Below are positions 25,880-46,169 of a DNA stretch of 61,286 nucleotides, in pieces; the first letter of the stretch is position 1; each line of letters starts with the position of its first letter. A program made the translations under genes and the position numbers. Source of the stretch: a virus (lineage: Duplodnaviria > Caudoviricetes); IMG/VR virus record IMGVR_UViG_3300038551_000086, positions 1-61,286 of that record; one strand, written 5' to 3'. The notes below the pieces were generated by a model. It made no database searches. It was not told the DNA's origin and worked only from the letters and a program-made list of their open reading frames with translations.

Positions 25880-25907
25880 ACTAATATCACCTTGTTATGT
25901 TCTTCCG

Positions 25908-25936
25908 AATTTAAGAATAAATGTTGTGAATATCAA
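25908..25936 (-). promoter_or_regulatory. Sigma70-type promoter for HNH 1
   Basis: TTGATA-17-TAAATT on minus strand. Confidence 0.55.
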
Positions 25937-25965
25937 GGATTTTTTTTACAGGGAGCTAAAGTATA

Positions 25966-26658
25966 ATGGCAGCTTCATCTTGGACGTTTAAAGAGATACA
26001 GGATTTTGTCACCGATCAGTTGCAGGAAGTCTTGAGCGCACCGGATATGAGCACCCACAAAATCAAGAAGTATATCAATCTTGGCTACGTGGATTTTTGC
26101 CGGAGAACAAAGATGCTCACCGACAGCTACGACATTACGACAGTGGCGAATCAGGTAAGCTATTCGATCTACGATGCAAATTTTGCGAACGTGACCCACG
26201 TGAGATATATCGAAGATTCATCGACCGAATACGGCATACCGCTAAGACTGTTTCCGGGCGGATTTGCCAACCTGCCGCGAGATATGGAGTTTGGGGAGCC
26301 TTATTACTATTGGGTGAGATATACGGGCGACAATACCGCTACGGAGATCGGCACTGTGCCGGTTGCCTCAACCGCAGATGAAACATTGACCGTTTGGGGC
26401 TATACCCTGCCGACCGTATTAAGCACCGACAACCAAACGCCGCTTCTCAAACAGGATTACCAGGAAGCTATGATACTCTACCCGGTTTGGAAGTTATGCA
26501 ACGCCTACGCTCATAAGTCGAAGGCAATCCGGGAAAAGGCAAGGGAGGCGCGGAACGAATACATTGACTTAGTTCAGGATGCTTTGAAAGATACAAGTTC
26601 ATTCTCGACCGACGACATTTCGACGGTGGATGAATATTCGGCTTTTGATCCATTTTAA
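25966..26658 (+). CDS. Head-tail adaptor protein 2
   Basis: IKKYINLGYVDFCRRT, TVANQVSY, GEPYYYW, PTVLS.DNQTP.L. Confidence 0.75.
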   Translation: MAASSWTFKEIQDFVTDQLQEVLSAPDMSTHKIKKYINLGYVDFCRRTKMLTDSYDITTVANQVSYSIYDANFANVTHVRYIEDSSTEYGIPLRLFPGGFANLPRDMEFGEPYYYWVRYTGDNTATEIGTVPVASTADETLTVWGYTLPTVLSTDNQTPLLKQDYQEAMILYPVWKLCNAYAHKSKAIREKAREARNEYIDLVQDALKDTSSFSTDDISTVDEYSAFDPF

Positions 26659-26768
26659 GAGGGTTGCAGGAAGGCAGGTCACAGGGAAGTGACACCCTCT
26701 TTAAACTTTGAGAGAATATGAATACTAAAAACAAAACGATTGGAAATACCGAGAATCTTAGAAAGATA

Positions 26769-27281
26769 TTATATTTTCTTTGTTCTTTTTCTGCGGTTAT
26801 TGCTTTGCTCCCTATTTGTTGCCCATCGGCAATTTTCAGGCGTATAATCACCATCATTGTTGATCCGATCAATGCTATGTTTAGGGGATGGACGTTTTCC
26901 CATATCAGCGAAAAAGTTTTTAAACGAATTACGCCAACGATCACAAACTCTTATTCCTCTTTGCCCATAGTACTTGAAAGATTCCTCGTTGGAATTATAA
27001 CATCTTCTTTTCATACCGCACCAAACAGAATATTCGGGCTTATTTCTGGTAAAGCCCCATACTATACCTTTTTTGCTATGACCGCTTTTGCGACCATTTT
27101 CTATATAAAGGCAACCACAACTTTTAGTGTTTCCGCTTTTGAGATTGTCTCCTTTTGCTATTGTAGTATTACCACAATCGCACTTACAAAGCCAATAAGC
27201 ATAACCTCGTTTTGTGAAGGCATATTCTATTACCAGCAACATATTGTAACGATTACCAGAAATATCAATTCTTCTCGACAT
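26769..27281 (-). CDS. HNH homing endonuclease 2 (paralog of HNH 1)
   Basis: [41 protein letters not shown]. Confidence 0.9.
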
Positions 27282-27440
27282 AACCTATCCTCGAAATTAA
27301 AAACCCGCTATAAGGCTTGTCTCAGGTGGATAACGCAAGGCGTGTCTAACCTGGCGTATGCCTCTAAAACATACGCGGGCGCTTATAACGGGCTTATTGA
27401 AATTCGGAATCATTCTGCGTTATCTCTTTTTGACGTAATA

Positions 27441-27469
27441 AATATAAAGACAAAAGTGGTATAAATCAA
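27441..27469 (-). promoter_or_regulatory. Sigma70-type promoter for HNH 2
   Basis: TTGATT-17-TATATT on minus strand. Confidence 0.6.
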
Positions 27470-30268: not shown

Positions 30269-30796
30269 ATGCCGACAAAGCCGCAGAAAAGTTATAAGTT
30301 TGCACAGAAGCCGCTTGAGCCGTTGTTGCAACAACTTTTTCGGGAAACGGAAGATAACTTCCCGGCATACGACAAAGACGGTGATATTGTGGTTGAGAGG
30401 GATATACATTGCCGCAGTTTGTATGTGGACGATGCCAGTATTTACATCGGCGGAGTGAAGATTGAAAAGCCTAAATTCGATGAAGATAATTACTACCTGC
30501 AATATGACCGCACCGCGAAGAAGTTTGTTTATCAGGCGACCACTACCCCGACGACCGAAGATGTGCAGGATATTGTCGGGGCGATGGTTACGGGCAACAC
30601 CGAAACCTTTATTGCGGTGACTTATGAAGATTCGGACGGAACGCTCGACTTTGTAGTTCCGGTTAAAGACGAGGATAACATGGCAAGCAATTCAGATACC
30701 TTTTTAGCAACACAGCAGTCAATCAAGGCCTATGTTGACACGGTTGCGGTGACGACTCAGAATAATTCGGAATTGTTTGCATTTTTTATGAGCTAA
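30269..30796 (+). CDS. Short tail-fibre-like protein
   Basis: Fibre repeats EDVQDIVGAMVTGNTET..VTYEDSDGTLD and KDEDNMASNS...ATQQSIKAYVD. Confidence 0.7.
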   Translation: MPTKPQKSYKFAQKPLEPLLQQLFRETEDNFPAYDKDGDIVVERDIHCRSLYVDDASIYIGGVKIEKPKFDEDNYYLQYDRTAKKFVYQATTTPTTEDVQDIVGAMVTGNTETFIAVTYEDSDGTLDFVVPVKDEDNMASNSDTFLATQQSIKAYVDTVAVTTQNNSELFAFFMS

Positions 30797-30798
30797 AT

Positions 30799-31134
30799 AT
30801 GGCGAATACTTATCAGCAACTTGGACAGGCAAGGGAAAACAGCACGAATGCTGTAAGCGTGTATTCGCCAGGAGCAAGCGAAGAAGTAATTATTAAGCAG
30901 ATTATCGTAGCAAACACAAGCGGAGCAGCAGCAACGGTGAGAATGTTTCACGACAACGACGGTACAACTTACGACGAATCGACAACAGTAGGATGGGACG
31001 TAACGATCCCGGCAAACAGCGTTTGGGATCGAGGCGTAACAATCTGCATGAATAACGCGGCGGGTAACTTCGCTTACCGTTCAAGTGTTGCAAACGCTCT
31101 TACAATAACGATTTACGGCGTAGTAAAAACATGA
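30799..31134 (+). CDS. Small beta-sandwich virion protein
   Basis: VYSPGA..IIKQIIVANTS..ATVR...IPANS...ITIYG. Confidence 0.65.
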   Translation: MANTYQQLGQARENSTNAVSVYSPGASEEVIIKQIIVANTSGAAATVRMFHDNDGTTYDESTTVGWDVTIPANSVWDRGVTICMNNAAGNFAYRSSVANALTITIYGVVKT

Positions 31135-32429
31135 GAAAACTAATATACATTTTCCTGTTACTGAGCGCGGTTGCTTACGCGCAAAGCAGCATCATTTTAC
31201 CGGAGACCAAAGACCGGGAAGTAAAGGCGCAGGATTCCTTTTCGATTGACGCTTTCGGGCGGTGGCGGGTATCTGAACCCTTTACCCTGTTTGACAGCAA
31301 GCAGCTTACTGATTCTGCCGCCTTGTTTTGGGACGACCAGGAAACCGACAGTTCTATCTCTGAGTATGTGGATAATTACGCCGCTACCAAAATGAAAGTG
31401 GCGGATACCACATTGGGAACGCGCACCCGGCAGACCAAAATGAGATTCAACTACCAGCCGGGTAAATCTCAATTAATTCTCCTTACCTTTTCCAACATTA
31501 AGAGCAAAGCCGGGATTACCAAACAGGCGGGGTATTTCGACGACAGGAACGGGATATTTCTGGAAAGCCGCAATGACAGCGTTTTTGTAGTCCGCAGAAC
31601 CTACGTCACCGGGAGCGCGGTAGATAATGAGGTATATCAAACAAGTTGGAATCTCGACACCATGAAGGGCACAGGCACTTCCGGGGTGACGCTGGACTTT
31701 ACCAAAACTCAAATATTTTTAATCGACCTGGAATGGCTCGGAGTCGGGCGGGTAAGATGCGGTTTTGTGGTGGACGGGTTTATCTATTACGTGCATGAGT
31801 TTAACAATGCAAACAGTTTGAGCACCGTTTATATGAGCACGCCGAATTTGCCCTTGCGTTATGCAATCTCAAACGATTCAACGGCAATGGCAGACAGCAT
31901 GTATCATATTTGCTCAAGCGTTATCAGCGAGGGAGGGCAGCAGGAAAACGGGGTATTGCGCTACAAGTCCACCGAGGGAACGAATCAGAACGCCGACGTG
32001 GAAAACACCCTGTATTCGGTATTGGGAATAAAGCTAAAATCGACCCATTTAGGCTCGGTGGTGAAGTTGGTAAATGTAGCCTTGCAGGTGCATACGGCAT
32101 CTTCCAAATGTGAGTGGGTATTGTTATTAAACCCGACCATTGCCGGGGCTAAGACGTGGGCGGATGAAACCAACAGCGCGGTACAGACCTTTGCGGGAGT
32201 AACGGCAAATACGGTAACGGGCGGGTATGCGATAACCGGGGGATTTGTCGAAACCGGGGGCGTAGCGGCTGGCGGGGCGGGATCGGTGCAGAGTTCAATA
32301 CAAAACGCAATTTACTTAGGCTCAACCATCGCCGGGGTGTCGGATTCAATTGTTGTGGCGGTGAGACCGATTGGCGGAAGCACCCTTGTTGACGTGGAAG
32401 GGGCTTTGACATGGAGAGAATTACAATAG
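31131..32429 (+). CDS. Phage structural-family protein with Sec signal peptide
   Basis: DAFGRWRVS, YQPGKS, DLEWLGVGRVRCGF, CSSVISEGG motifs; signal ...AVAYA|Q. Confidence 0.72.
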   Translation: MRKLIYIFLLLSAVAYAQSSIILPETKDREVKAQDSFSIDAFGRWRVSEPFTLFDSKQLTDSAALFWDDQETDSSISEYVDNYAATKMKVADTTLGTRTRQTKMRFNYQPGKSQLILLTFSNIKSKAGITKQAGYFDDRNGIFLESRNDSVFVVRRTYVTGSAVDNEVYQTSWNLDTMKGTGTSGVTLDFTKTQIFLIDLEWLGVGRVRCGFVVDGFIYYVHEFNNANSLSTVYMSTPNLPLRYAISNDSTAMADSMYHICSSVISEGGQQENGVLRYKSTEGTNQNADVENTLYSVLGIKLKSTHLGSVVKLVNVALQVHTASSKCEWVLLLNPTIAGAKTWADETNSAVQTFAGVTANTVTGGYAITGGFVETGGVAAGGAGSVQSSIQNAIYLGSTIAGVSDSIVVAVRPIGGSTLVDVEGALTWRELQ

Positions 32430-32439
32430 GAGCAATAGA

Positions 32440-32910
32440 ATGGCAAGTACTATTACAGCAGCAAGTTTAGTAGTAACGATTACGGAGAGTATTTTTTTAA
32501 ACGGCAAAGATCACGGCGCGGAGAACACCTTGACGCTTACGAGCATTAATGAAGTGACCAAGAGAATTGTCACCGTCCCGACAAGCGAAGTGATTCTGAT
32601 AGCATTTTCAACCGCAGTGGCAGCCGGAACTTTCGTCGAGAGCACCGTTAAGTATATCCGAATCACTAACAAAGACGACACCAATCACGTCGGGTTGATC
32701 TTCAGAAATGAGGACAGCGACGAGTTCAGCATTAAGCTGGATAAAGGGCAGTCGTTCATTTACAACGGCGACGTGTCGGGCGGTGTGGTTGACACGATGG
32801 ATGCGGCAGCGACCGCAGTAACGCCGAACACCTTTGCCGACCTTGTGGATATAACCGCAATCGCAGACACGGCATCGGTGGATGTTGAAATCTTTATTGC
32901 AAGCACATAA
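32440..32910 (+). CDS. Virion structural protein
   Basis: KYIRITNKDDTN...VDVEIFIAST, a common tail-region family. Confidence 0.65.
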   Translation: MASTITAASLVVTITESIFLNGKDHGAENTLTLTSINEVTKRIVTVPTSEVILIAFSTAVAAGTFVESTVKYIRITNKDDTNHVGLIFRNEDSDEFSIKLDKGQSFIYNGDVSGGVVDTMDAAATAVTPNTFADLVDITAIADTASVDVEIFIAST

Positions 32911-32924
32911 GAGAGGTAATAAAC

Positions 32925-33551
32925 ATGGCATTACCAGCAATTTTAGCAGGAATAGGTACTGGGATCGGGGCGCTTGGTTCATTATTCGGAACAGGCAGCA
33001 AGACCGAGATTCCGCCGGAACTCCGGGAAATTTACAACCTTCTGATGCAGCAGTCACAGGAAGGCTTATCAGACCGCACCGTTGACATGCTATTGCGCCG
33101 CGCGAAAACCGGGCTTGGCAATGAAGCCGGGGCATTGGGCGCAATGACCGAGGCAAGGCTTACCCGCCAGGGCGCGGGGACGGGCGTAAAACAGTCCGCA
33201 TTGAGCCGGATAAACGAACAGCGATTACGCGGCATCGGGGATGTGACAACTCAGGTAGGGTTAGCCGACGAAGAAGCGAAACAAGCCGCCTTGCGCCAGT
33301 TAGCGCAGTTAGCGCCGATGTTTGGCGACCCGAACTTTAAGAGCCAATACGGGCAGGGCTTCGCAGACCTGCTACAAGGAGGCTTGAGTTATCTTCTGAA
33401 TCAACCGGGAAAGCAACCGGCAGCCGCACCCAATCCGATACTTGACGCAGTGAATGAATTTCTTTACCCGTCAACTCAAAACCCGATCCAGGTACAGCAA
33501 CCGAATGTAAACCCGACACCTTACTTATTGCAGTTTGGCGGAGGCAAATAA
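32925..33551 (+). CDS. Putative DNA ejection/pilot protein
   Basis: Gly/Ala-rich hydrophobic N-terminus AILAGIGTGIGALGSLFG; Q/A-rich helices. Confidence 0.65.
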   Translation: MALPAILAGIGTGIGALGSLFGTGSKTEIPPELREIYNLLMQQSQEGLSDRTVDMLLRRAKTGLGNEAGALGAMTEARLTRQGAGTGVKQSALSRINEQRLRGIGDVTTQVGLADEEAKQAALRQLAQLAPMFGDPNFKSQYGQGFADLLQGGLSYLLNQPGKQPAAAPNPILDAVNEFLYPSTQNPIQVQQPNVNPTPYLLQFGGGK

Positions 33552-34283
33552 ATGGCAGAGAAACTTGAGAGAACCCGAACACCTGACCGCTTGCAGGGCG
33601 CGGAGAACGCTTCACGTGCAATCGCCAACGTGCTCAACTTTACATTAGGGCAACAGATACAGCGAGAGCAGCAGCGCAAGGCGTTAGAAGCGGTTGCACA
33701 GGAGCAAGAGTTTAAGAAAGCGTTGCAACAGCAGGAGCAGCAAGCGGCGTTGTCGCGGTTGCAATCTGACCTTGCTCACCGGGCGGTTGCAGACCAACGG
33801 GCGCGGGATTTGGAACGGCAAAAGTTAGACGAGATGGCGCGGCACAACAAGGCAATGGAAGCGTCAGAAGCGGAACAAGCAAGGGCTTTAGCACAACAAC
33901 GCCGGGAATTAGCGGCGAGAACAAAGCAGGACGCGGTTGTTGAGAGCCTGTCAAAGTCGATGAAAGACCGCATTGATCGCCTTGATATACTTTACGGTTA
34001 CGGCAACGATCCGGCAGCACAATTACAAGTGCAACAGATATTGAAAGAGATACCTATCATTCAGAGGCAGCTTGACGCGGTAAGATCGGGCGGGGCTATT
34101 TCACCCGACTTTATGCAGCAAGTAGAGCAGACAACAACACCGCAACAATTCCCGGTAAGAGAAGAATTTGGTATATATACCCCTCCGGGACCAAGTTTTG
34201 CCATGCCGCAGACATACGGCGATTTGGAGAAAACAGCAAAAGGCGCAGCCGAACAACCTAAATCTAAGCCGAGGCTCTATTAA
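33552..34283 (+). CDS. Putative ejection protein (coiled-coil)
   Basis: Q/E/R-rich helix with E.ARHNKAME. Confidence 0.6.
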   Translation: MAEKLERTRTPDRLQGAENASRAIANVLNFTLGQQIQREQQRKALEAVAQEQEFKKALQQQEQQAALSRLQSDLAHRAVADQRARDLERQKLDEMARHNKAMEASEAEQARALAQQRRELAARTKQDAVVESLSKSMKDRIDRLDILYGYGNDPAAQLQVQQILKEIPIIQRQLDAVRSGGAISPDFMQQVEQTTTPQQFPVREEFGIYTPPGPSFAMPQTYGDLEKTAKGAAEQPKSKPRLY

Positions 34284-37200
34284 TGCCCGAAGAAATCCTA
34301 AAAAAAGTCTATGAAGGCGGATCGAAGTATTACGATCTGGATGATTACGACACTTTCAAACGGAAGATGCAAGACCCCGCAATCAGACGGAAAGTTTATG
34401 ATGGGTTGTCTCAGTATTATCAACTTGACGATTTTGCTAAGTTTGAAACAGATATAGGGATTCAGGCGAAGCCAAAGGAAAGCGAAAAAGATATTGGTTT
34501 TTTTAAGGCAGTCGGAAAAGCGTTATATCCAACAAGGTCATTTAGCCCGGAGGTGGTTAAGAAAGAGGGCGGGGACATAATTTCTTTAAACACAGTTGGG
34601 GAAACAGCCTTGAACGCTCTGATGTTGCTATCTGATTATATTCCTTCATCTTTTTTCCCCACAAGAAGCGGACCATATAAGGGCGTTAAAGAGACCATCC
34701 CGCAGGCTATTGCAAGAAGAAAAGAAAGATGGGAAACACTTTCGCCGGAAGAACTACAAACATCAGGGCAGGCTTTTCATTATGCACAGGGCGGAGTAGT
34801 TCAACCTCTTAGCCCGGAGATGGCTGAGGGTGTGGGCAAACAAGCCACTGAATTTATAGCCGACCCCCTTTGGATTCCTGGAATCAAAATAACCAAAGCT
34901 GGAATAGGGGCAATCTCAAGGGCTATGAAAGCTATGAAGGCGGGTAAAGAAGCTGACGCAATTAGAATAATCGGCAAGATCGAAGGAGTTACCGCCAACC
35001 AAGCCGACGAGTATGTAAAATTCTGGACAGCGCCGGAGAATAAGGCGAAATTGGATGAAGCTGAGGCGATAGTCAACAAGAGAGCGTTTGATGCAGAGAA
35101 AGTCGGCAAGCCGGAACTTGAGGCTTTAAACGAACGGCTTAGAACACAGGAACGATTAACCCGCTTAGGAAAACAGACCGAGGAAATGGCTGGAAGCCGG
35201 GTGATACTCGGACCCAACGAAGAAAGAATAACTATCCGACCCGACGGAAGCCGGATTATCCGCGATAAATACGGCAATCTGATTGAAGAAATACCGTCCG
35301 CTAAAGCAACGCCCGAAGATGTAGCTGTGAGAGAGAAATTAAGAGAAGCGGCGGTAAGAGAGAAGAAGCCCGAAGCCCCTACCCCGCTTGAACAGCTGAC
35401 CACCAAAGTCAAAGCAGGTGAGGCTACCGGCGAAGAAATCAAGACCTTTGTCAAAGAAAGCGAACCCGCAACGGTTGAGAAAGCCGAGCAGATATTAAGA
35501 AAGGCGCACAAGGAAGCTAAGACACCCGAAGAAGGTTCTGACATTGCTAACGGCATTGACGTATTGACACAGGCAAGCGGTAAAAAGCCGAAAGTGCCTA
35601 CGCCAAAAGCGCCACCTAAAAAAGCTCCAATATCTAAAAAGGTAGAAAAAGAATATCAGGCGGGGAGGGCAAGCGCAGAAGCCAATATACAGGAAAGAGG
35701 GGAGCAATTCGCAAGGAATATGGCGAAAAAGCCGGGATATGGAGCAACAGAAGAAATACAAGCGTATTGGAAGGGCTATGCCGACGTGCTGGATGAAGCA
35801 AGAGCACCCGCAAAAAAAGTGGCAACGAAGGGAGAATTAACACCTTATGAAAAATCAGCCAAAGGCGCACCATCGGGAGCGCAGAAGGTGACAACTGCAA
35901 TCGGGCGCGATCCGAATTTGCGATTGCTTGACAGCGAGATTGAGGGAATATACGGCAAGGGTACGAAAGAAACCGAGGACTTGATTAGGAAAATTGGCGG
36001 TGGCAAAAGAACCCTTGACGATGTTTCCCGCGAATTGCAGGAAGCTGGAACGATTGCACCCGCACCGCAGGACTATAATTCACAGCACCTTATCAATTTG
36101 ATTACCGAAGATGCGCCGACAGTGGCAAAGGCAGAGCGACAGGCGGAGAAAGCGGCAGAGCAGGTTTTCGGCAAGACAGCGAAAAAAGCACCGAAGGTTC
36201 AAGAGCGACCTACTCCCCCAACGCCGACAGGGGCAAAAGAGAATATCGCTTACAACAATTTTAAAGAGGGCGACAAGTTTACTGTTGACGGTGAGGAATT
36301 TACTGTTACAAGCAAGATGATTGAGAATGACGGTGAAGTAGTAGGTGTCAGGCTTAAAGACCGAAAGAATTACGAGCAAGATTTAACAGATTGGAAGTCA
36401 GGTGTTGATATTGACGAAGGCAGTTTAAAGAAAGCGGGGGCAGAGCCTACACCTGCAATAGAACTTACAGCCTTTAAACCAAATCCCAAATTGCCAGATT
36501 GGTTAAATGATGCAATGTTGAGAGAGGGCAAAAATCCAAACAGACCTTTCAATGAGATAGATATTACAAATAAGTCGGTAAGAGATGCCATAGAAGCCGA
36601 TCCATCCTTGACAAGGAAAGAGAAAGATTCTTTGTTGAAAACCGGCTCAAGGCAAGAACCTACACCTGCACCGAAGGCGGAAACACCCGCTAAACCGGAG
36701 ATCGTCGAACCTGAGCAGGCTGGGACGGCAAAACAGGGCGTTTTAGGGGAAGGCGAGACTGCACCCACACCGAAAGCCGAGCCGATTGAACAAGTCACAA
36801 AAGGGAAAAAGGAGTTTCCAAAGAATTTCAGAGAATTATTGCCAGAAGAACAAGGGGCACTTGTCGTTGACACCTTAGAAAAAGGTGAAATAATAAAGGT
36901 TGGCAATACTGAATACAAAATAACAAGCAAGACTCCCAAGAAGATAACCATAAAAAATTTAAAAACAGGGAAATCCGGCACTATTTATAAATGGGGCAAT
37001 CAGAATGTTGCATGGATGAAAACAAAGAATGACGGGACAGCGACAGGATTTTTTAGAGACATTGAATCTGATATAACAAGAAGCCTTATAAGTGAAAAAA
37101 ATATATTCGGGCAAGTCAAAACAGAAGCCTACAATAGAGCAATAAAGAGGTTCGATGAATTAAAAAGTCAAGCAAAGCCCAAAGCCGAGCCTACCCCCAT

Positions 37201-40200
37201 CGAGCAGGTGACGAAGGGGAAAGAATTGAAAGAAGGCGAATCTATCCCCTTGCAGCGCGGCACGAAAGAGTTTACCGAGCAACAGGCGAAAGCGGGAAAG
37301 AAACCCGCAAAGCTCACCAAACAGCAAAAGAAAGAAAAGTTTGCTAAGAAGCTGGAAGAAGGAGAATACAAGGGGGATATGTTTGTTGAGGAAGGCAAAG
37401 CGCGACAGACTTCTTTGCTGGAAAAGGAAAAGCCGACACCGCTTGAACAGGTGGCAAAACCGACCGCAGAGTTGAATTATGCAGACAGATGGAATAATAG
37501 CCTAAAATTGGGCAGAAAGGTTGAACTCGTTAAGGGCGGGAAATGGGTAACGAATAAAGGCGGATTGTCAAAACTTGGTGAGAAAATTGCCGAATCAAAA
37601 TGGGAAGATATTTCACCCGCAGCGCAAAAAGTTTTACAACGGGAAATTGATAAATTTTACAAGACCGCTAAAGCTACACCCGTCGAACAACTCACCGCGC
37701 CTAAACAGACCTTCCGCCAGTTTGTCGAGAGCAAGGGTGTAGAGTGGGATCAGGTTAGCGGGGCAAGGAAAGATGAAGTGTTGCGGCAACGGTTGTTTGA
37801 CGAATTTCAAGGGAAGAAACCGGAAAAGGTGAATGTGACATTTACCAATCTGCAAGAGATACCGGGATCAAAAAAGGCTACGATAATGGTTGACCTGCCG
37901 AGCAAGACAACGGTAGGTTATGATGCTTCTCGTCATATCTTGAGTGATGCGGAAAAAGCGAAACTCAACAAGGCTATACAAAAAGGCGGATTTGAGGGCG
38001 CGGTTGAAGAACCGGAATTCTTGCTTATGATGAAAGATTACAAGCCCAAGAAAGCAAAGACAGGCAAAGAGTTTGCCGAGGGCTTACTTGACGCGGCGAA
38101 AAAGGATATATTCGGGCAGGAACTCGGCATAACTCCCGATCCTTACCGCAACCTGAAGAAGTTTCTCGATGAAAACAAGCTGAGGCTCACCGATGCCGAG
38201 CGCAAGAAACTGATGGATTTCGCCAGTGGCGTAGCAAAGCGCGGATTGCTTACAGCAGAGAAACGCCAGCAGTTGATTGATGAATATATTGCCAAAAACT
38301 TTACGCGGACACCGGAAGGGATACCGACAGCGAAAACGGGAGAAACGCCGCTCGAGAGGTTGACTAAGACAGAGCCGATAACTCCGGCAGTCACAGAAGC
38401 GACAGAGGGAACGGTAAAGAAAGTTAAGCCTAAGACTTTCCGACAGCTTGAGAATAAGTGGAAGCAGCCGATGGGCGAAGGGAAACCGACTACACCTGGC
38501 TATAATGTTGAGAAGATGCACCCGGCATTGAAAGACGAATTGCCGCAGATAATTGAGAATTTCCGGGAAGAATTTAACTTGATGCGCGGGGAACGGCTTA
38601 CCACCGAGCAAGCTATTGATTCGGCTATTAAATTCGCCGGGAATCTAACAGACGATGCAGTAATGACCCTGAAACGCTCAGACGTAACAAATGCGTCCCA
38701 CCTGCTCGGCGCAAGAATTTACGTCAACAACCGATTGCTTGAGATTTCCGACAAGTTGGCTGCCATACCGAAAGACGCAAGCGGTAAATTAATCGGTGAA
38801 ATTACCGCAGAGAATAAGCACGTTCTTGATATGTATATGAAAGTCCGATCATTGGGAACAGAAACAGCAAGGGCTTTGCGCTTTATGCAGATACCGATGG
38901 GCGACAACCTGATAAACGGGATGAAAAAATACCGTGACGTTCTTGCGAAAATTGATCCCAAGTCTGCTAAGGTATTATCGGATGTTATTGCCGATGCCGA
39001 AAAACTTCCCACTAAAACCGATGCAATACTATTCTGGTGGTATAACGGTATGTTGTCAAACCCGTTTACCGACCTTGCAAACATTACCGGGAACGCTTCA
39101 CATCTTACGTGGGAAATAATGACCAATATGGCTCATAAACCATCGTCCATAAAGCAAATGTTCAAGGGGCTTTGGGAAGGTTCAAAGGAAGGCGTGAAGC
39201 AAGCAAAGGCAATTTACAATCAGGAAAAAGAATTGTTAAGCAAGTTTTCCGGGGACATTGGACGGGCAAGGTATGACGTATATCCTAAGACGAAAGTCGG
39301 TAAATTTCTGAGGAGTACTCTACCAACAACCCGACTTGCGATGGAAGATGCAATATTTTCAAACATGGCTAAGCAAATGAGAATCGGGGTTGAATCTCCG
39401 ATACTGGCTAAAAAATTCGGCACTACCGTTGACGATGTTTTAGAAACCGTAAAGAATGTTATCGAAAATCCTGAGTTTGTAGCAGGAGCGAATGATAAGG
39501 TGTATAGAGACTTAGCTGAATACGCCGAGAAATACGCTGAATATTTGACCTTTAGAACGCCGCTAAAGAGCAAGTTCATGCAGGGAGCGCAGCAAACGCT
39601 TTGGGTTAAGCCGTTTATTCCCTTCCCGCGCGTAATGGCAAATATCGCAAAGGCGGGATTTAAAAACTCCCCGGCTGGAATTATAAAATTTTTCGGCAAA
39701 GATGCAAAGACGCTATCCGCTTTTGAACGGCAGGATATAGCAAGACGGGCTTTGGCGGGGACTGCGGTGTTTTCGGGATTGGGCACAATGATGGCGGCGG
39801 GAAAGATTGAGATAACCGGATCGGGACCGGAGAGCAAGAAAGAGCGCGAATTATGGGACAAGATGGGATACAAGCCGAATCACATCTACATCGTTGACGG
39901 TGACGGTTCAAAGACCGGAATATCCTATCAGAACATAAACCCGTTTAACGTGATTCTTGCGGTAATGGGTAACTGGCAGGATCAGTACCGTTTCGGGAAC
40001 AAGCTCACCGACGACGAGAAAACCCTTACCGAGAGGTTGAGTTATGCCCTTGCCGGGGCAGCGGCAACCATGACCGATCAGAGCTTTATGCAGGGCATAT
40101 CAAATCTATACGACTGGATCAGGTATAAAGACGAGGGATATTTAGAGGACTTCTTTACCAAACCGTTTATCCCAAACATTGTCGGATTTCCGCGAAACTT

Positions 40201-40714
40201 GCGGGAATATGTTAGCGGGGAAAAGCCGAGATATGAAGCAAGAACATGGTGGGAACGGCTTAAAAGGAGAGTCGGGTTGTATGAAGGGCTGATACCGACT
40301 TACAGCGCATACGGCGGACAGAAAGAAAGCGGTTATGAAAGATTCCCCTACTTCCCTACTGATATTGAGAGAGACCCGCTATTGGAAAATCTCAGGGGTA
40401 AAAATGCTTTAATCAGTGTTCCGTCAAAAAATACAAGCATAAACAACCGGAAGATAACCGATAAGGAATACTCTGATTATGTCAAGTTTAGCGGCAATGA
40501 AATAATCAGCAAACTAAGACAGAATCAGAACGAAATTTTGAAGATGAACGCGGAAGATACGCAGGACTACATTGACAACATCGTGAGAAATGCGCGGAGG
40601 AACGCAAAGGAAACCATTGAAAACCGATCAGGCGGGGCATTGCAGCAACTCACCAAACCGCGAAGCAGGACAAGACCGAGACCGACAAGACCAAGAAGGG
40701 CAAGAGTAAGATAA
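34283..40714 (+). CDS. Giant internal virion/ejection protein (large polyvalent-type, 2143 aa)
   Basis: Low-complexity K/E/A/P middle, helical C-terminal region (GMLSNP.T...N, FIPF.R..AN, ITGSGP), Arg-rich tail. Confidence 0.7.
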   Translation: MPEEILKKVYEGGSKYYDLDDYDTFKRKMQDPAIRRKVYDGLSQYYQLDDFAKFETDIGIQAKPKESEKDIGFFKAVGKALYPTRSFSPEVVKKEGGDIISLNTVGETALNALMLLSDYIPSSFFPTRSGPYKGVKETIPQAIARRKERWETLSPEELQTSGQAFHYAQGGVVQPLSPEMAEGVGKQATEFIADPLWIPGIKITKAGIGAISRAMKAMKAGKEADAIRIIGKIEGVTANQADEYVKFWTAPENKAKLDEAEAIVNKRAFDAEKVGKPELEALNERLRTQERLTRLGKQTEEMAGSRVILGPNEERITIRPDGSRIIRDKYGNLIEEIPSAKATPEDVAVREKLREAAVREKKPEAPTPLEQLTTKVKAGEATGEEIKTFVKESEPATVEKAEQILRKAHKEAKTPEEGSDIANGIDVLTQASGKKPKVPTPKAPPKKAPISKKVEKEYQAGRASAEANIQERGEQFARNMAKKPGYGATEEIQAYWKGYADVLDEARAPAKKVATKGELTPYEKSAKGAPSGAQKVTTAIGRDPNLRLLDSEIEGIYGKGTKETEDLIRKIGGGKRTLDDVSRELQEAGTIAPAPQDYNSQHLINLITEDAPTVAKAERQAEKAAEQVFGKTAKKAPKVQERPTPPTPTGAKENIAYNNFKEGDKFTVDGEEFTVTSKMIENDGEVVGVRLKDRKNYEQDLTDWKSGVDIDEGSLKKAGAEPTPAIELTAFKPNPKLPDWLNDAMLREGKNPNRPFNEIDITNKSVRDAIEADPSLTRKEKDSLLKTGSRQEPTPAPKAETPAKPEIVEPEQAGTAKQGVLGEGETAPTPKAEPIEQVTKGKKEFPKNFRELLPEEQGALVVDTLEKGEIIKVGNTEYKITSKTPKKITIKNLKTGKSGTIYKWGNQNVAWMKTKNDGTATGFFRDIESDITRSLISEKNIFGQVKTEAYNRAIKRFDELKSQAKPKAEPTPIEQVTKGKELKEGESIPLQRGTKEFTEQQAKAGKKPAKLTKQQKKEKFAKKLEEGEYKGDMFVEEGKARQTSLLEKEKPTPLEQVAKPTAELNYADRWNNSLKLGRKVELVKGGKWVTNKGGLSKLGEKIAESKWEDISPAAQKVLQREIDKFYKTAKATPVEQLTAPKQTFRQFVESKGVEWDQVSGARKDEVLRQRLFDEFQGKKPEKVNVTFTNLQEIPGSKKATIMVDLPSKTTVGYDASRHILSDAEKAKLNKAIQKGGFEGAVEEPEFLLMMKDYKPKKAKTGKEFAEGLLDAAKKDIFGQELGITPDPYRNLKKFLDENKLRLTDAERKKLMDFASGVAKRGLLTAEKRQQLIDEYIAKNFTRTPEGIPTAKTGETPLERLTKTEPITPAVTEATEGTVKKVKPKTFRQLENKWKQPMGEGKPTTPGYNVEKMHPALKDELPQIIENFREEFNLMRGERLTTEQAIDSAIKFAGNLTDDAVMTLKRSDVTNASHLLGARIYVNNRLLEISDKLAAIPKDASGKLIGEITAENKHVLDMYMKVRSLGTETARALRFMQIPMGDNLINGMKKYRDVLAKIDPKSAKVLSDVIADAEKLPTKTDAILFWWYNGMLSNPFTDLANITGNASHLTWEIMTNMAHKPSSIKQMFKGLWEGSKEGVKQAKAIYNQEKELLSKFSGDIGRARYDVYPKTKVGKFLRSTLPTTRLAMEDAIFSNMAKQMRIGVESPILAKKFGTTVDDVLETVKNVIENPEFVAGANDKVYRDLAEYAEKYAEYLTFRTPLKSKFMQGAQQTLWVKPFIPFPRVMANIAKAGFKNSPAGIIKFFGKDAKTLSAFERQDIARRALAGTAVFSGLGTMMAAGKIEITGSGPESKKERELWDKMGYKPNHIYIVDGDGSKTGISYQNINPFNVILAVMGNWQDQYRFGNKLTDDEKTLTERLSYALAGAAATMTDQSFMQGISNLYDWIRYKDEGYLEDFFTKPFIPNIVGFPRNLREYVSGEKPRYEARTWWERLKRRVGLYEGLIPTYSAYGGQKESGYERFPYFPTDIERDPLLENLRGKNALISVPSKNTSINNRKITDKEYSDYVKFSGNEIISKLRQNQNEILKMNAEDTQDYIDNIVRNARRNAKETIENRSGGALQQLTKPRSRTRPRPTRPRRARVR

Positions 40715-40741
40715 CAATTTAATTAAAGGAGCAAGAGGGCA

Positions 40742-41263
40742 ATGAAAACACTGTTATTTTTAATCTTAATGAGCGTAGCAATTTGGGCGCAAACGGCAGT
40801 CAAGACCGTCCCGCAGAGTCACGATTGGATAAGGATTTATGACGGGTTGCTTGGCGACAACGGCGACGGAGTGGACACTACCGATGCCTTTTCACCGAAG
40901 CAATGGGAAGGCGTACTAACCTTAGCTTGTGAAATCGACACGGGCGATGTTGACGTTAGCGGAACGCCGGATAGCTGCCTTTCGGTCTATTTCCAGATCA
41001 AGCGCAGATATGTATATCCGGGAAATCAAGCAGTTGACCAGGATTGGATGGGCTACTACGACGGAACCGATGTGACAAAGGTTAAGATTGATACCGTAGC
41101 GCGGAGCGTAATAAACACGGATGCTTGCTTGTTTTACATGAACCCGGCAGCCGAAATGTCAACCACCGGAGAGTGGGCTTGGGCGGATAGCATCAGGTTC
41201 ATTTTGGGAATCGGCGTAGGTGATAGTCTTGAGTCCGTAAAGTTAGACGTGGGAGGTCAATAA
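40742..41263 (+). CDS. Exported beta-rich protein
   Basis: Signal MKTLLFLILMSVAIWA|Q. Confidence 0.7.
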   Translation: MKTLLFLILMSVAIWAQTAVKTVPQSHDWIRIYDGLLGDNGDGVDTTDAFSPKQWEGVLTLACEIDTGDVDVSGTPDSCLSVYFQIKRRYVYPGNQAVDQDWMGYYDGTDVTKVKIDTVARSVINTDACLFYMNPAAEMSTTGEWAWADSIRFILGIGVGDSLESVKLDVGGQ

Positions 41264-41655
41264 TGGCACGTAACGTAAGACCACTATTCGGCACAGATTA
41301 CAGCTTTTCCGAATCTTCCGGCACTTCCAACATTAACGGCACGAAGATTGTCAACGATTATCCCCCTTCCGCTAACAACGTGGCGAGTATTTTCATCCAT
41401 TCTGACGGGGCAAGCGTGACCTCTATCGAGATGGGAATATATTGCCAATTTTGGAGTGGCGTGGATTGGGGACCGTTACACGCGGTTATCGACGAAAACG
41501 GGGCAGCAATCACGATAGACCCGTCTGAGGATGAAGATCGTGACGCAGACCTCTACGGGCAACCCTGGTGGAAGGAGAATGACGGATGGAGGATTGTCTT
41601 AACAAGGGCAAACCCGACAACCATAGCGGGACAGGCAACCGCAATAATAAGGTGA
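41263..41655 (+). CDS. Small beta-sandwich protein without signal peptide
   Basis: GGAGG RBS, TAATG coupling. Confidence 0.65.
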   Translation: MARNVRPLFGTDYSFSESSGTSNINGTKIVNDYPPSANNVASIFIHSDGASVTSIEMGIYCQFWSGVDWGPLHAVIDENGAAITIDPSEDEDRDADLYGQPWWKENDGWRIVLTRANPTTIAGQATAIIR

Positions 41656-41659
41656 AAAT

Positions 41660-42736
41660 ATGAAAAAATTAATCTTTCTGATTGTGCTTTTGGGGATTGC
41701 GGCGGAGGCGATAGCACAGACACCGCTACCCCGGAAAAGAACGCAGTGGCTCGATTTGTCGGAAGCGGTAAAAGACTCAATCCGGGCAAGCGGTTATGTT
41801 TTCCCTGTCCCATCCGATAGTGTTTCTCCCGATACGTCCTATGTATCTGCCGACTCCGGGCTTGGCGGGGGCGGATGGTTAGAGTTGGGTGATTCCGTAG
41901 GTGTGCACGTCAACGTGGACAGCGTGACGATTGACATTCTTAATGATACTCTCCGGGCGGATACATTGCGATTGGTTACAATCACCGCTTTGATTGACAC
42001 TATTGCAACACTATACCCGATACCGCACGATTCGCTTGATACCGACACAATTTGGGTTAGCGCCGATAGCGGTTTAGGAGGCGGAGGATCGGTTGAATTA
42101 GGCGATACCATAGGCGTTCACGTCAACGTAGATAGTGTAACAATAGACATTTTAAACGATACCTTGCGAGTTGATACAACCAGAATAGCAACCTTGCCCG
42201 ACGTGAGCGACAGTTCACAATACTATTACTGGCGTTCCGTCAGCCATGACCACTACCCCTCTTATGGCAACCTTGTCCCATGGGATTTGAACGACTACCA
42301 GACCGATCAAGACAGCGTATTTATCTGTTTCTGGCAGGAAGCGGCGACACTCAAGCCCTATATCGAAATTAAAGCGGATAGCGCAAGCACCGATAGCCAA
42401 TACGTTCACCTTGTTTATTCTTTCACTGCACCGAGAAATGTTTCCGCCATTAGCGATACTTTGTTTATTGTCGAGTTTAAAACATCGGTGGCGGATACCG
42501 ATTCGGTGGGTTGTGAGTTGCTTGTTTACGAGGGCACAACGGCAAGATACGCGACAGATACAATGACCGCTTCAGCGACATGGACGACAAAAGCGATTAC
42601 AAACGCTCAGGGTACATTATCCGACATCGTAAAAGAGGACAGATTTCAGTTGATTATAAGGGTGAAGGCTCTTAATTCCTCTGCGGCGGTTGACCCGACA
42701 ACCTGGATTTCACGGATCAGGGAAAGGTGGTGGTAA
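41660..42736 (+). CDS. Exported fibre-repeat protein, very D-S/T rich
   Basis: Signal ...AAEAIA|Q; two 42-aa repeats VSADSGLGGGG..ELGD..GVHVNVDSVTIDILNDTLR.DT. Confidence 0.75.
   Translation: MKKLIFLIVLLGIAAEAIAQTPLPRKRTQWLDLSEAVKDSIRASGYVFPVPSDSVSPDTSYVSADSGLGGGGWLELGDSVGVHVNVDSVTIDILNDTLRADTLRLVTITALIDTIATLYPIPHDSLDTDTIWVSADSGLGGGGSVELGDTIGVHVNVDSVTIDILNDTLRVDTTRIATLPDVSDSSQYYYWRSVSHDHYPSYGNLVPWDLNDYQTDQDSVFICFWQEAATLKPYIEIKADSASTDSQYVHLVYSFTAPRNVSAISDTLFIVEFKTSVADTDSVGCELLVYEGTTARYATDTMTASATWTTKAITNAQGTLSDIVKEDRFQLIIRVKALNSSAAVDPTTWISRIRERWW
41840..42178 (+). repeat. Internal coding duplication (41840-41965 and 42053-42178)
   Basis: Near-identical peptide, codons diverged at silent sites. 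Confidence 0.8.
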
Positions 42737-44646
42737 TGAGAGTTCTTTTATCGTTGCTTATACCCTGGCTTCTTTTCGCTCAAATAGGGGTAGTAGATAC
42801 CTTTTATACGGGTGACGGGGATGGCACGACAGACCCGCGTACCGTGTTAACTGCGACGGATAGCGTGAAACTTGTTCTCGTGACCGCCTGGAATGTTGCC
42901 CTGTTTCCCGGCTGGAAAACGCCGGATATGAGCAATGTGACGCAGAGTGTTACAGGCTTTGCAACTACAACATCCGGAGGTATAGTCATAACCGGAACAG
43001 GAAATACTCAAGTCCAAGTGGATAGTTCGTGGGATGGACTTAATATACTACATCATGTCACCGCCTTTTACGGTGAGTCTGTTCATCACGGAACATTTGC
43101 CGGAACAGGTTCGGGGGTTAGAGTGGAGACCGGATTTCAACCGAGATGGTTGTTTATTTCTGAACATGGCGTAGGAACAACTCAGGAATTTGCGGGATAT
43201 TGGTATACAACAATTGGTGATCTAACCCACAACGTGGACGGAACAGCGATAAATTGCAAACGTGACTCCACCGGATTTACTCTCGCAACCACTACCGGAG
43301 GTCATACCTACTATTGGGTAGCCTTTTCCAGCAGCCCAAACTACTTTTATGGGGAGTATCTTGGGGATGGGACAGATGATCGGTGGATAGACATAGATAA
43401 TGAGGTTGAGTTTTTATATGTGACCGCACCAAACGAAAGTGACGCAGGGGCGGGAGTGCAGGGAACATGGAAATCACGAGATATGTTCTTGATTGACACT
43501 TGCGGTATTATGTCAAATGATCCGGGATATGAGCAAGACCGGATACAGGAAATAGACAATTCAAATACTCAGTTTCAGGTTGGAACTGTATCTAATAACA
43601 AGAACGAAGTTTATCTTTATTGGGGGATAACAACCACTGTCGATACTGTTTTACCAAAAATTTATGTAGATATGAACTATAATGAGGTTCAAATAACCGG
43701 GAACGGAAATGCAACAAGGGCGGTTAGCCTCGGTTTTCAACCGGATGTAGTTTTTATTGCACCGAGTGAGGGTGCAACGTCAAGAGTATATGCAAAGTCA
43801 TATGAAATGGGCGGTGACAGCGCAATGGCTTTGTATGATTCCACCTTGAAATCAGACAGATGCACTATTACGTCAACGGGGATTACCCTCGGTAGTCATC
43901 TTAACAAGAATACAATAGTGTATAACATTTCCGCCTTTGACTCAGACACTAATGGAGTTTTAGCGGGAAGATATGTGGGAGATGGGACATTTAGGAGAGA
44001 AGTAAATTTAACGGAGAACTTTCGTCCAGCCGTTGTATTTACGATGGCTAACGACGATACCCTATTCGGAAAGGTGAAATCATTGAGTCTTGGCGGAATA
44101 GATACATTAAGCGCAAATACATACGACGATGCTCTCGGCGGGAATGGGATAAAAGTATTAAATCACAACAAGTTTATTACAGGAAATGGTATTTATATTA
44201 ATAAAAGCGGTATTACTTACCACTGGATAGCTTTTGCGGAAGGTCAATGGTTCGACGGGTATAACTTTGCCGGAAGCGGTTCGAGTAATGTTCAAAAGGC
44301 GATCAGCAACTTATTTCAAGGCGACATTTATACAATATATGAGCATGGAAATTATGTTGACAGCGAAGCACTTTGGAAAAATTTCGATTTCGCCGTGAAC
44401 AGCGCGGCGCAAATTGCGGGGGCATACGTAACAAATCAACTTGATACAGTAACCGCTACATATTTCGTAGTGGATGAAAACATAAACAGTAATTATCTTG
44501 GAATAGACTTTTATTGGTTTGCTCTTGGTGGATATGAAGCGCCGGGCGAGGAAACTCCGACCGGGCAAGACAGACGACAACCGTGTGATGGAAATGCGAC
44601 AATCCTTAACAAAGAGGGTGTACGGTGGAAAGACAAATACAAATAA
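42736..44646 (+). CDS. Exported protein with DUF7483-like phage fibre repeats
   Basis: Signal MRVLLSLLIPWLLFA|Q; repeated YTGDG/GFQP..VFI/GFT/TYYWVAF units. Confidence 0.72.
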   Translation: MRVLLSLLIPWLLFAQIGVVDTFYTGDGDGTTDPRTVLTATDSVKLVLVTAWNVALFPGWKTPDMSNVTQSVTGFATTTSGGIVITGTGNTQVQVDSSWDGLNILHHVTAFYGESVHHGTFAGTGSGVRVETGFQPRWLFISEHGVGTTQEFAGYWYTTIGDLTHNVDGTAINCKRDSTGFTLATTTGGHTYYWVAFSSSPNYFYGEYLGDGTDDRWIDIDNEVEFLYVTAPNESDAGAGVQGTWKSRDMFLIDTCGIMSNDPGYEQDRIQEIDNSNTQFQVGTVSNNKNEVYLYWGITTTVDTVLPKIYVDMNYNEVQITGNGNATRAVSLGFQPDVVFIAPSEGATSRVYAKSYEMGGDSAMALYDSTLKSDRCTITSTGITLGSHLNKNTIVYNISAFDSDTNGVLAGRYVGDGTFRREVNLTENFRPAVVFTMANDDTLFGKVKSLSLGGIDTLSANTYDDALGGNGIKVLNHNKFITGNGIYINKSGITYHWIAFAEGQWFDGYNFAGSGSSNVQKAISNLFQGDIYTIYEHGNYVDSEALWKNFDFAVNSAAQIAGAYVTNQLDTVTATYFVVDENINSNYLGIDFYWFALGGYEAPGEETPTGQDRRQPCDGNATILNKEGVRWKDKYK

Positions 44647-46169
44647 TCTTACTTATGCTTTTACTTTCGGTATTTGTAAAAGCGCAGATATTTACTGAGA
44701 CCTTTAACAGTTTCACCTGGTCTTGGGCGTATGGGACAGCAGGTTGGAACTTCGGTGGAGCAGCATCTGGGTATGATACTGTAAACTCTGGCACATATAA
44801 CTTAACAAGATCAGCAGGATTCTCTGTAAATTGGGCATCAGAAACAGTTTCTGGTGGCATAATAGACTCGGCTGGAACATATATAACATTCGACGGATCA
44901 AGTGAGTATATGACCAGCACAAATGCTATTTTCAACCCCGGAACAGATGATTTCTGGATTTTAGGTGCACTAAAAACACCCGCGTCTATGCCAACTTCCG
45001 CTAAATACATAATTAACAAATACAGAGCAGCCACAGACAATGGATGGTCGATATTTTTTTATGATAATATCGTTTATTCCAAAATAGAACATGATCCGGT
45101 AATTGCCCCAGGCGTGACTGTTCCCGCAGATAAATCTATCTTTTTCGCCAACTTAATGGACAGAAGCGGGAACGGAACTTTCAGGGTTTGGACAGGAGAT
45201 AGTTTGTTAGCCATTGGAACGGCAGATATAAGTAGCAAATCAGGAGTTAATATTACATCAGCTACCGCTATGACCATAGGAACGTATGCGTATACTCCTG
45301 CCAACAATGAGTTTGACGGTTGGATGGATGCTCTTTGGTTTGGACGTGGGACTTTACCAACTCTTGAGCAAATATGTGCCGAGTTCTTTTTAGCTGATGG
45401 ATGGTATTCGGATACAGATAGTTCCGGGGCGATAAGGGATAACTTTGGTTGGCATCAGGGAGTGACTTGCGGAGTAGCTACGCCACAAATAACAATTGCT
45501 ATAATAGGAACAGAAGGATTGCAACCGGCAGATTATACAGATTACGCAACTATTACAGGTGACTCTACTACTTACACTATACAGTTCCCCTTAATTGACA
45601 GTTTAAATAGCGATGCAATTAGATTCGATATTGACAGCGGGGATATGAGCGATATTAACCATGCCCTACCTGATACTGTTTTTCAAGAAGGTTATGGTTT
45701 ACAAGTTAAGTTTGATTGTTGGTCTAATCCTGGAACTACCAGCAATTATTATGTGTTGTTTGATAATGTAGTTGTGACGACATATCTTCTTAATCCTGAA
45801 ATAAGTTCAAGCCCCGCAAGCAAAAATTTTGGCAATATCGTTGTAGGTGACAGTTCATCTCAAGTGTTTACAATAAGCAACACAGGAGCAGACCCGCTAA
45901 CGGTTACGGATATTAATTGGGTTACAGCCGCACAGGTGAGCGTTTCCGATACCGCTTTTACGGTAGATACAAGCGGGACGCAGAATATAACAGTGTGGTT
46001 TAAGCCTCAGTCAATCGGTGCGAAATTGGATACATTGACAATCGTCAACAATGATCAGGATGAAGGGAACTTTACAATTCCATTATCCGCAAACGGAATC
46101 TTGCCGACAGCAGGAAACACATTTAGAAAATATCCAAGCGCAAACAGCAATAAATTCAAAGGTTGGTGA
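44625..46169 (+). CDS. Exported LamG-like plus Ig-like (choice-of-anchor D/ASH-type) protein
   Basis: Signal ...SVFVKA|Q; FDGSSEY...IIN.Y..GWSI...FDGWMD; PEISSSP.S.NFGNI.VG..FTISNTG..PLTV...LTIVNND.DE. Confidence 0.75.
   Translation: MERQIQIILLMLLLSVFVKAQIFTETFNSFTWSWAYGTAGWNFGGAASGYDTVNSGTYNLTRSAGFSVNWASETVSGGIIDSAGTYITFDGSSEYMTSTNAIFNPGTDDFWILGALKTPASMPTSAKYIINKYRAATDNGWSIFFYDNIVYSKIEHDPVIAPGVTVPADKSIFFANLMDRSGNGTFRVWTGDSLLAIGTADISSKSGVNITSATAMTIGTYAYTPANNEFDGWMDALWFGRGTLPTLEQICAEFFLADGWYSDTDSSGAIRDNFGWHQGVTCGVATPQITIAIIGTEGLQPADYTDYATITGDSTTYTIQFPLIDSLNSDAIRFDIDSGDMSDINHALPDTVFQEGYGLQVKFDCWSNPGTTSNYYVLFDNVVVTTYLLNPEISSSPASKNFGNIVVGDSSSQVFTISNTGADPLTVTDINWVTAAQVSVSDTAFTVDTSGTQNITVWFKPQSIGAKLDTLTIVNNDQDEGNFTIPLSANGILPTAGNTFRKYPSANSNKFKGW

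Follow-up and report, generated by a model that had tools for sequence, protein, structure and literature searches.

The viral record IMGVR_UViG_3300038551_000086 (Duplodnaviria; Caudoviricetes), of wetland origin, is complete, has direct terminal repeats and was analysed over its full length of 61,286 bp, which we call the window. Its late operon contains on the plus strand six genes, named here by their first nucleotide, whose products begin with a signal peptide of the type used for export by the Sec pathway and cleavage by signal peptidase I (Sec/SPI), in each case with glutamine at position +1. Gene 24132 (24132–24626, 164 amino acids (aa), cleavage after TANA) lies between the head and the adaptor genes. 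Gene 31131 (31131–32429) codes for a precursor of 432 aa with a concanavalin A (ConA)-like lectin or virion-structural body; its signal peptide has 17 aa (31131–31181) and ends in AYA. The other four are 40742 (40742–41263, a 173-aa orphan, AIWA before the glutamine), 41660 (41660–42736, a 358-aa precursor, AIA) with two repeats of the fibre-shaft type and a C-terminal beta-sandwich resembling a carbohydrate-binding module (CBM), 42736 (42736–44646, a 636-aa precursor, LFA) with putative repeats of the DUF7483 type, and 44625 (44625–46169, a 514-aa precursor, VKA if a GTG start is used) with an orphan N-terminal part of 380 aa and an Ig-like choice-of-anchor D domain. A first-pass annotation of the window had named five of these genes, and all five are present on the plus strand with the N-termini it described. 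The count itself has to be raised, as a looser hydrophobicity scan first revealed the sixth gene, 24132.

The signal peptides were called with a rule-based scan. To pass, an N-terminus had to have a lysine or arginine in the n-region, a hydrophobic stretch of 10 or more uncharged residues, residues that are small at −1 and allowed at −3, and glutamine at +1 within residues 15–31; 1636 combinations of start codon and open reading frame (ORF) were examined, from both strands and with a minimum length of 40 aa. Nine combinations passed. Eight of them fall in the six genes, gene 42736 being counted with three alternative starts (42727/42730/42736), and the ninth is a minus-strand ORF of 40 aa that lies within another gene. 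The reversed sequence gave 3 passes among 661. The scan recovers all N-termini that had been described as Sec/SPI-like with glutamine at +1, the arrangement of the Q-rule, which the available part of one report describes as Bacteroidetes-specific (PMC5837995).

The genes follow each other closely: 31131 overlaps its predecessor by 4 nt, 41263 and 42736 each do so by 1 nt, and gaps of 27 nt and 4 nt precede 40742 and 41660, respectively. Gene 42736 may start at GTG 42727. The signal peptide of 44625 requires translation from a GTG, with which the ORF reaches 22 nt into the upstream gene; in the database the gene is called from Met11 (ATG 44655), which would leave only MLLLSVFVKA before the glutamine, and this signal peptide is less certain than the other five. 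A Bacteroidota-type promoter pattern occurred once where 2.8 matches are expected by chance, and scans for sigma-70 promoters and terminators remained at chance level. Contigs from four more wetland metagenome runs, which may stem from one sampling campaign, cover these genes with zero differences (one spans 40741–43499, another 30868–32586). In addition, the only close relative found in IMG/VR, a single contig (L003/L035, hereafter L003), retains the signal peptide of 31131 with synonymous changes. Therefore, the signal peptides are not an assembly artefact. L003 stops short of the block 40742–46169, and comparisons with it exclude this block.

No lipobox with cysteine at +1, as recognized by signal peptidase II, occurs, since all six proteins have glutamine there. 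A type IX secretion system (T9SS) sorting domain was found neither in the six proteins (NCBIfam, E ≤ 0.1) nor in the proteins of the window or six relatives (Pfam). Thus, as far as established routes go, the five soluble proteins would remain periplasmic until the cell lyses. The genome contains no paralogue of any signal-peptide gene, and none of 41660, 42736 and 44625 has a direct match among 50,697 phage records.

A second sequence feature points in the same direction. Bacteroidota O-glycosylate exported proteins at the motif D(S/T)(A/I/L/V/M/T), as stated in the available part of PMC8550257. We counted this motif in 31 hand-picked ORFs, six being the signal-peptide genes and 25 being other ORFs that are larger or annotated, and obtained expected counts from composition-matched shuffles. 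The six signal-peptide proteins have 45 motifs against 12.7 expected (3.6-fold), whereas the 25 others show no enrichment (31 against 27.4). Five of the six are individually enriched: 31131 with 7 motifs (1.9 expected), 40742 with 4 (1.15), 42736 with 8 (2.9), 44625 with 8 (3.3) and 41660 with 18 (3.2; none of 500 shuffles reaches 18). Gene 24132 has zero motifs. When the repeat-rich 41660 is left out, 27 motifs remain against 9.2 expected, a count reached by none of 200 shuffles. A mild excess is present in three other proteins, the capsid protein (4 against 1.4), 23250 (3 against 0.9) and 56645 (3 against 0.5). Fourteen altered motifs were counted in the signal-peptide set and none is clearly enriched: those with E, N, Q, G, K, S, T, A or P at position 1, the reversed motif and three other changed forms are at or below expectation, and D(S/T) followed by any other residue occurs 23 times against 19.0 expected, with 41 of 200 shuffles reaching 23.

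The enrichment of this predicted glycosylation motif tracks the signal peptide in two families. Gene 31131 and its L003 homologue have 7 motifs each (about 2 expected; 0 of 300 shuffles), six of them at shared alignment columns, while 22 family members without a signal peptide have 0–4 motifs, the count of the most enriched being reached by 19 of 300 shuffles. For 41660, the N-termini of 33 relatives were classed by eye. Twelve have a hydrophobic N-terminal segment, followed in 10 of them by glutamine after a small residue; in nine of these twelve no shuffle reaches the motif count, and in the other three 2, 13 and 26 of 500 do. The 19 relatives without a hydrophobic segment are not enriched (at the lowest 18 of 200 shuffles, in the rest at least 72), and the two that are N-terminally incomplete are both motif-rich. 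Export and glycosylation are well supported in silico, as these two independent sequence signals track each other across families; the motif enrichment is a new and independent support for predicted export.

Gene 31131 belongs, as had been proposed from its DAFGR..YQPGKS..EWLGVG pattern, to the family phrog_1645 (E 7e-86, residues 31–430), whose label ‘virion structural protein’ derives from record annotations. It matches 171 phage records, mostly of cyanomyoviruses, together with HMO-2011 and DSL-LC04, and keeps all residues that are invariant in the family alignment (A1): D40, F42, R44, Y108, P110, G111, K112, W202, L203 and G206. An AlphaFold2 model built from 14 sequences has a mean pLDDT of 71. 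The Foldseek comparison that had been proposed as a check returned from the PDB as best match the C-terminal receptor-binding domain of TM4 gp23 (E 8.9e-7, with a low template modelling (TM) score), followed by concanavalin-A-type lectins and GH16 enzymes with target TM scores of about 0.5–0.6. Among predicted viral structures, proteins of Caudovirales (E 1e-33), haloarchaeal tailed viruses, cyanophage virion proteins and actinophage minor tail proteins were matched. A GH16-type enzyme was rejected, as in A1, judged by eye, the conserved IDxEW stretch does not fit the catalytic E-x-D-x-E. From the structure paper of HFTV1 no virion part with a fold like that of 31131 could be assigned, and papers on rumen phages and zeta-crAss phages contributed nothing relevant.

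The frame upstream of the conserved core was read at 17 IMG/VR loci (L003–L019, some identical) and contains a signal-like segment in L003 only. The 13 loci that come from genome assemblies, of which one is truncated at a contig end, have no hydrophobic signal-like segment, and the homologues of HMO-2011 and DSL-LC04 likewise have no signal peptide. The predicted signal peptide of 31131 is lineage-specific, with L003 alone sharing it among about 30 relatives read. Three of the 13 assembly loci are on contigs binned to Chitinophagaceae, Cyclobacteriaceae and ‘Bacteroidetes’, although the binning of phage contigs is unreliable; all three have no signal peptide, which speaks against the idea that it was gained generally in phages of Fibrobacterota–Chlorobiota–Bacteroidota hosts. 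The mature protein starts about 20 residues before the core, like full-length relatives without a signal peptide. Dual targeting was rejected, as no in-frame ATG, GTG or TTG lies between signal peptide and core.

Directly upstream lies gene 30799 (30799–31134, plus strand), which codes for a 111-aa protein that lacks a signal peptide and shows 90% identity to its counterpart in L003. In L029 a homologue (E 1e-24) is again located directly upstream of the lectin gene, which has no signal peptide there. The pair 30799 and 31131 looks like a conserved module that would now be split over two compartments. A protein of about 110 aa also adjoins the lectin gene in many unrelated phages (L001, L002, L005, L008, L029 and L031), and the residue pattern of HMO-2011 ORF64 resembles, by eye, that of 30799. 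These observations suggest that the lectin gene and its neighbour of about 110 aa form a widespread two-gene module.

The fibre repeats noted before in 41660 are indeed shared with fibres: they recur in large proteins, and three of the five that were scanned carry the endosialidase-chaperone domain Peptidase_S74. This domain is a hallmark of phage fibres. The repeat is a tandem of about 70 aa (SADSGLGGGG...VDSVTIDI..DTLR.DT) that occupies residues ~55–180 in two copies; metagenomic proteins of very large size, such as P0033 with 3888 aa, contain up to 12 copies. The C-terminal domain has a confident model and is CBM4-like at modest scores (E 1e-4 to 1e-3). Two metagenome scans for the family gave no match. 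The relatives with a signal peptide include P0036 (918 aa, with a pectate-lyase-like beta-helix) and P0042 (1169 aa, with LamG), which both have many glycosylation motifs and resemble whole fibres or spikes. Together with P0024 and P0038, which are likewise motif-rich, fibre-like and provided with a signal peptide, they suggest a wider class of such phages.

The DUF7483-like character of 42736 is supported indirectly, through its sole relative in a large protein collection, P0004 (E 2e-42), which has seven DUF7483 stretches. P0004 in turn matches 39 phage records, among them gp37 of the pelagiphage HTVC011P, annotated as ‘tail fiber protein’, and two genes for a ‘virion structural protein’. 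A direct BLASTP match between 42736 and HTVC011P gp37 is weak (E 2e-4), and no direct match to Pfam PF24299 was obtained at E ≤ 0.05, only DUF7361 being listed below its cut-off (E 0.015). Mature 42736 starts at the first repeat, which HTVC011P gp37 reaches after about 15 residues; in both 31131 and 42736 the signal peptide occupies the place of a short N-terminal segment in relatives without one. P0004/P0047, from a Planctomycetota assembly, has a hydrophobic signal-like start followed by glutamine, and the glycosylation motif is not enriched in it.

Gene 44625 had been read as LamG plus Ig. The Ig-like part is well founded, with NCBIfam NF012200 at 62.8 bits (cut-off 45, residues 388–480) and Pfam matches to ASH (E 8.5e-12), HYDIN-type Ig and DUF1573; the LamG part is a lead from the Atlas language-model score (0.86) only. 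All six relatives of this protein cover the Ig-like part alone. For 40742, identified as an ORF and by the rule-based scan, no match was found in Pfam, PHROG, NCBIfam or the phage database.

Gene 24132 does not look like a virion part. Its product, with the N-terminus MKYLYFVFIAVLLSFTANA followed by Q, has an Atlas feature score of 0.97 and structural TM scores of 0.83–0.88 to OMP_b-brl clusters, which are commonest in Bacteroidota; Pfam gave no match at E ≤ 1. The gene is absent from L003 and has no promoter or terminator signal of its own above chance. It probably codes for a small outer-membrane beta-barrel and is probably a moron-like insertion.

The late operon around these genes encodes, on the plus strand, the large terminase (15734), the portal (18917), the major capsid protein (22178), two paralogous SU10-type adaptors (24636 and 25966; Pfam PF24175 with a cut-off of 27 bits, scores of 51.9 and 55.2) and a protein of 930 aa (27475) that is a putative nozzle by position alone and has no family match. 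A fibre stub of 175 aa without a signal peptide follows (30269–30796); its residues 90–161 match PHROG tail and tail-fibre families (phrog_24210, E 6e-6; phrog_1197, E 1e-4) and it is 61% identical to its L003 counterpart. Between the lectin gene and the genes for internal proteins lies 32440–32910 (plus strand), whose 156-aa product has no signal peptide, no family match in Pfam and PHROG scans and no tblastn match in L003. The internal virion protein encoded by 34283–40714 (plus strand) has 2143 aa and matches phrog_6651 (E 1.7e-24), the match to the known internal-protein family being confined to residues 1762–1950; it contains zero cysteines, and its first two thirds are a long, low-complexity region rich in K, E, P and A. 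A 130-aa protein without a signal peptide and without family match (41263–41655, plus strand) is encoded amid the signal-peptide genes.

The phage appears podovirus-like because no tube, sheath or tape-measure gene is seen in the genome, and the integrase gene at 10470–11381 makes it probably temperate; taken together, the gene content is that of a probable temperate, podovirus-like tailed phage. Just upstream of the integrase are genes for a family-2 glycosyltransferase (GT2; 8546–9448, Pfam E 5e-27, GtrB-like O-antigen conversion in PHROG) and a sulfotransferase (9412–10044, E 1.8e-12), a pair that is a possible surface-glycan conversion module. Two cysteine-rich paralogues (25160–25966 and 26718–27464, with 12 and 7 cysteines and 41% identity over 126 aa) each directly follow one of the two adaptor paralogues. 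They have no match in L003 and no family match, and may be mobile insertions. The early region contains a gene for an Mgm101-type single-strand annealing protein (51730–52938, Pfam PF06420, E 1.4e-48), which adjoins RusA-like, DnaD-like and DnaB-like genes. No endolysin, holin or spanin family was recognised across the genome; 14411–15505, 13414–13686 and 46163–46441 encode membrane segments, either internal or at the N-terminus, and are possible lysis genes. Among the 50,697 phage records the capsid protein has 1 weak match and the putative nozzle 0, and an alignment of the nozzle again found L003 alone. Close relatives of 42736, of 44625, of the 41660 family and of the C-terminus of the giant internal protein were not found in IMG/VR.

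We consider it highly probable that the six genes code for true Sec/SPI precursors in a Bacteroidota host which become capped by pyroglutamate, and that five of the products are O-glycosylated at many predicted sites. It is very improbable that the hydrophobic N-termini are uncleaved membrane anchors or the product of wrong start choice. Such an explanation could appeal to the rules, instead of a trained predictor, on which the calls rest and to the uncertain start of 44625. It does not explain why each of the six proteins combines glutamine at +1 with a small residue at −1 and an allowed one at −3, nor does it accommodate the translational overlaps that fix the starts of 31131 and 42736, the synonymous changes with which L003 retains the 31131 signal peptide, and a motif enrichment that tracks the signal peptide. 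Thus, the signal-peptide proteins probably mature outside the cytoplasm. The topology signals can be read directly from the sequence, whereas the role of the proteins is something we infer.

We suggest that late in infection a temperate phage of a Bacteroidota host would make six precursors for Sec and signal peptidase I. After export the new N-terminal glutamine would be cyclised according to the Q-rule of the phylum, and five of the six proteins would be multiply O-glycosylated by the general periplasmic system of the host. The product of 24132 would be an outer-membrane barrel inserted moron-fashion, and the other five would be soluble proteins of the beta-sandwich or lectin type. The modules of 31131, 41660 and 42736 are found in tail fibre or virion proteins of other phages. 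These fibre-derived glycan binders would no longer join particles in the cytoplasm and would act in the envelope or, after lysis, as free stabilised lectins. Possible roles are the masking or occupation of surface-glycan receptors, the exclusion of other phages or the sparing of progeny from debris. We tentatively prefer this free or envelope-bound role over docking at lysis, because an envelope-type protein, the OMP-like 24132 that is absent from L003, shares the operon; because 44625 has a domain typical of bacterial surface proteins; because 41660, 42736 and 44625 are without a direct match in the phage records; because the phage appears temperate and has the GT2 glycosyltransferase and the sulfotransferase beside its integrase; because Q-rule proteins of Porphyromonas phages are read as outer-membrane modifiers, as given in the available part of PMC10367356; and because the literature searched gave no tailed phage with virion parts routed through Sec.

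Several observations weigh against such a role and point instead to a morphogenesis in two compartments, in which head, tail and fibre stub would be assembled in the cytoplasm while 31131, 42736, 41660 and perhaps others mature in the periplasm. There the distal parts would fold, gain pyroglutamate and a glycan coat, and dock at lysis once the inner membrane is breached. Gene 31131 adjoins the fibre stub and 42736 follows the giant internal protein, which are the places where fibre genes are expected. In T7-like phages, too, the fibre gene follows the giant internal protein, the position of the block 40742–46169 here. Both genes are tightly packed in the late operon and have no paralogue lacking a signal peptide; 31131, a single-copy gene, offers no alternative start before its core, is collinear in its mature form with full-length relatives without a signal peptide and retains its conserved neighbour 30799, itself predicted to remain cytoplasmic. 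Three of the five soluble proteins contain modules of virion or fibre families, and family scans recognised no other candidate, of the conventional kind without a signal peptide, for a receptor-binding protein. The very high motif density would be expected of an exposed extracellular structure, the large motif-rich relatives P0036 and P0042 with their signal peptides look like whole fibres or spikes, and with neither T9SS domain nor lipobox there is no known route to the cell surface before lysis. Nevertheless, docking at lysis seems doubtful to us: nothing in the analysis shows attachment of the exported proteins to virions, one of two possibilities in the first-pass annotation, the mature N-termini have by eye no common docking motif, and Sec routing of virion parts was not found described for a tailed phage in the literature searched. 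Moreover, 24132 indicates that non-virion envelope genes occur in the same operon, the only relatives of 44625 and of the 41660 C-terminal domain are unplaced or of a cellular type, and relocation of an essential fibre to the periplasm would presumably cost assembly yield. Of the two alternatives offered originally, the repurposing of former fibres is at least as likely as two-compartment morphogenesis.

A benefit for the lysogen, whose glycan foraging or surface would be altered by an outer-membrane protein and by carbohydrate binders that are secreted, none of them taking part in the infection cycle of the phage, appears improbable. The integrase, the GT2 glycosyltransferase and the sulfotransferase would fit such cargo, as would the CBM4-like and ConA-like folds, and signal peptides are reported on about 5% of prophage carbohydrate-active enzymes in the available part of PMC13507307. 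However, the genes overlap within the late structural operon, where promoter- and terminator-like signals are not above chance, family scans detected no catalytic family, and three of the proteins are of the fibre type and not of a host type. A mixture of roles among the six proteins is quite possible.

According to the prevailing view, the particles of tailed phages are built wholly in the cytoplasm, and the proteins that phages encode for export are as a rule small and accessory. In this genome, entire fibre-type proteins appear to have gained an export signal together with dense host glycosylation motifs, the two features co-varying in two families, and whichever role holds, this points to phage proteins as substrates of Bacteroidota O-glycosylation. 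The signature, a signal peptide followed by glutamine plus motif enrichment on a fibre-like body, can be used to screen phages of Bacteroidota from gut, marine and soil habitats. Should the proteins join virions, the approach to receptor-binding proteins, host-range prediction and virion proteomics in this phylum would change, and a two-compartment assembly would be a bacterial parallel to the way in which eukaryotic viral glycoproteins mature in the secretory pathway. Should they act free, they would represent a new kind of fibre-derived factor for receptor masking or exclusion.

When compared with known systems, the proteins of the window share with the substrates of the general O-glycosylation system of Bacteroidota the three-residue motif and the need to be exposed in the periplasm, glycosylation being predicted here; phage-encoded substrates of this system were not found in the literature searched. 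A close parallel is provided by Porphyromonas gingivalis phages, for which the available part of the report describes five Q-rule signal-peptide genes of unknown function that are read as outer-membrane modifiers (PMC10367356). Both cases have phage-encoded Sec/SPI signals, glutamine at +1 and a Bacteroidota host, as far as that part of the report goes; in contrast to the window, it does not mention fibre or virion families or O-glycosylation motifs for these proteins (PMC10367356).

With the phrog_1645 proteins of cyanophages and HMO-2011, 31131 shares body and invariant residues, but the signal peptide and the extra glycosylation motifs are present only in 31131 and L003 among the relatives read. 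In the same way, Peptidase_S74 fibres share the shaft repeats with 41660, and the DUF7483 fibres of pelagiphages and cyanophages share the putative repeat type of 42736. These classical fibres have neither signal peptide nor motif enrichment, whereas the proteins of the window have no S74 chaperone and no recognised N-terminal virion anchor.

Virion proteins with signal peptides are established for Inoviridae (pIII and pVIII) and PRD1, which assemble at or with a membrane. The likeness would be that structural proteins pass the Sec pathway before assembly; unlike these viruses, the window encodes the equipment of a tailed phage, with portal, major capsid protein, adaptors and internal proteins. 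Among tailed phages, Lom and Bor of lambda, Llp of T5 and Cor are single small signal-peptide proteins that act on the envelope and are unrelated to fibres, although their genes are located amid tail genes. The putative small outer-membrane barrel encoded by 24132 resembles lambda Lom. In contrast to Lom, Bor, Llp and Cor, the window in addition encodes five large lectin-type proteins, three of them fibre-derived, which take up about 11% of the genome.

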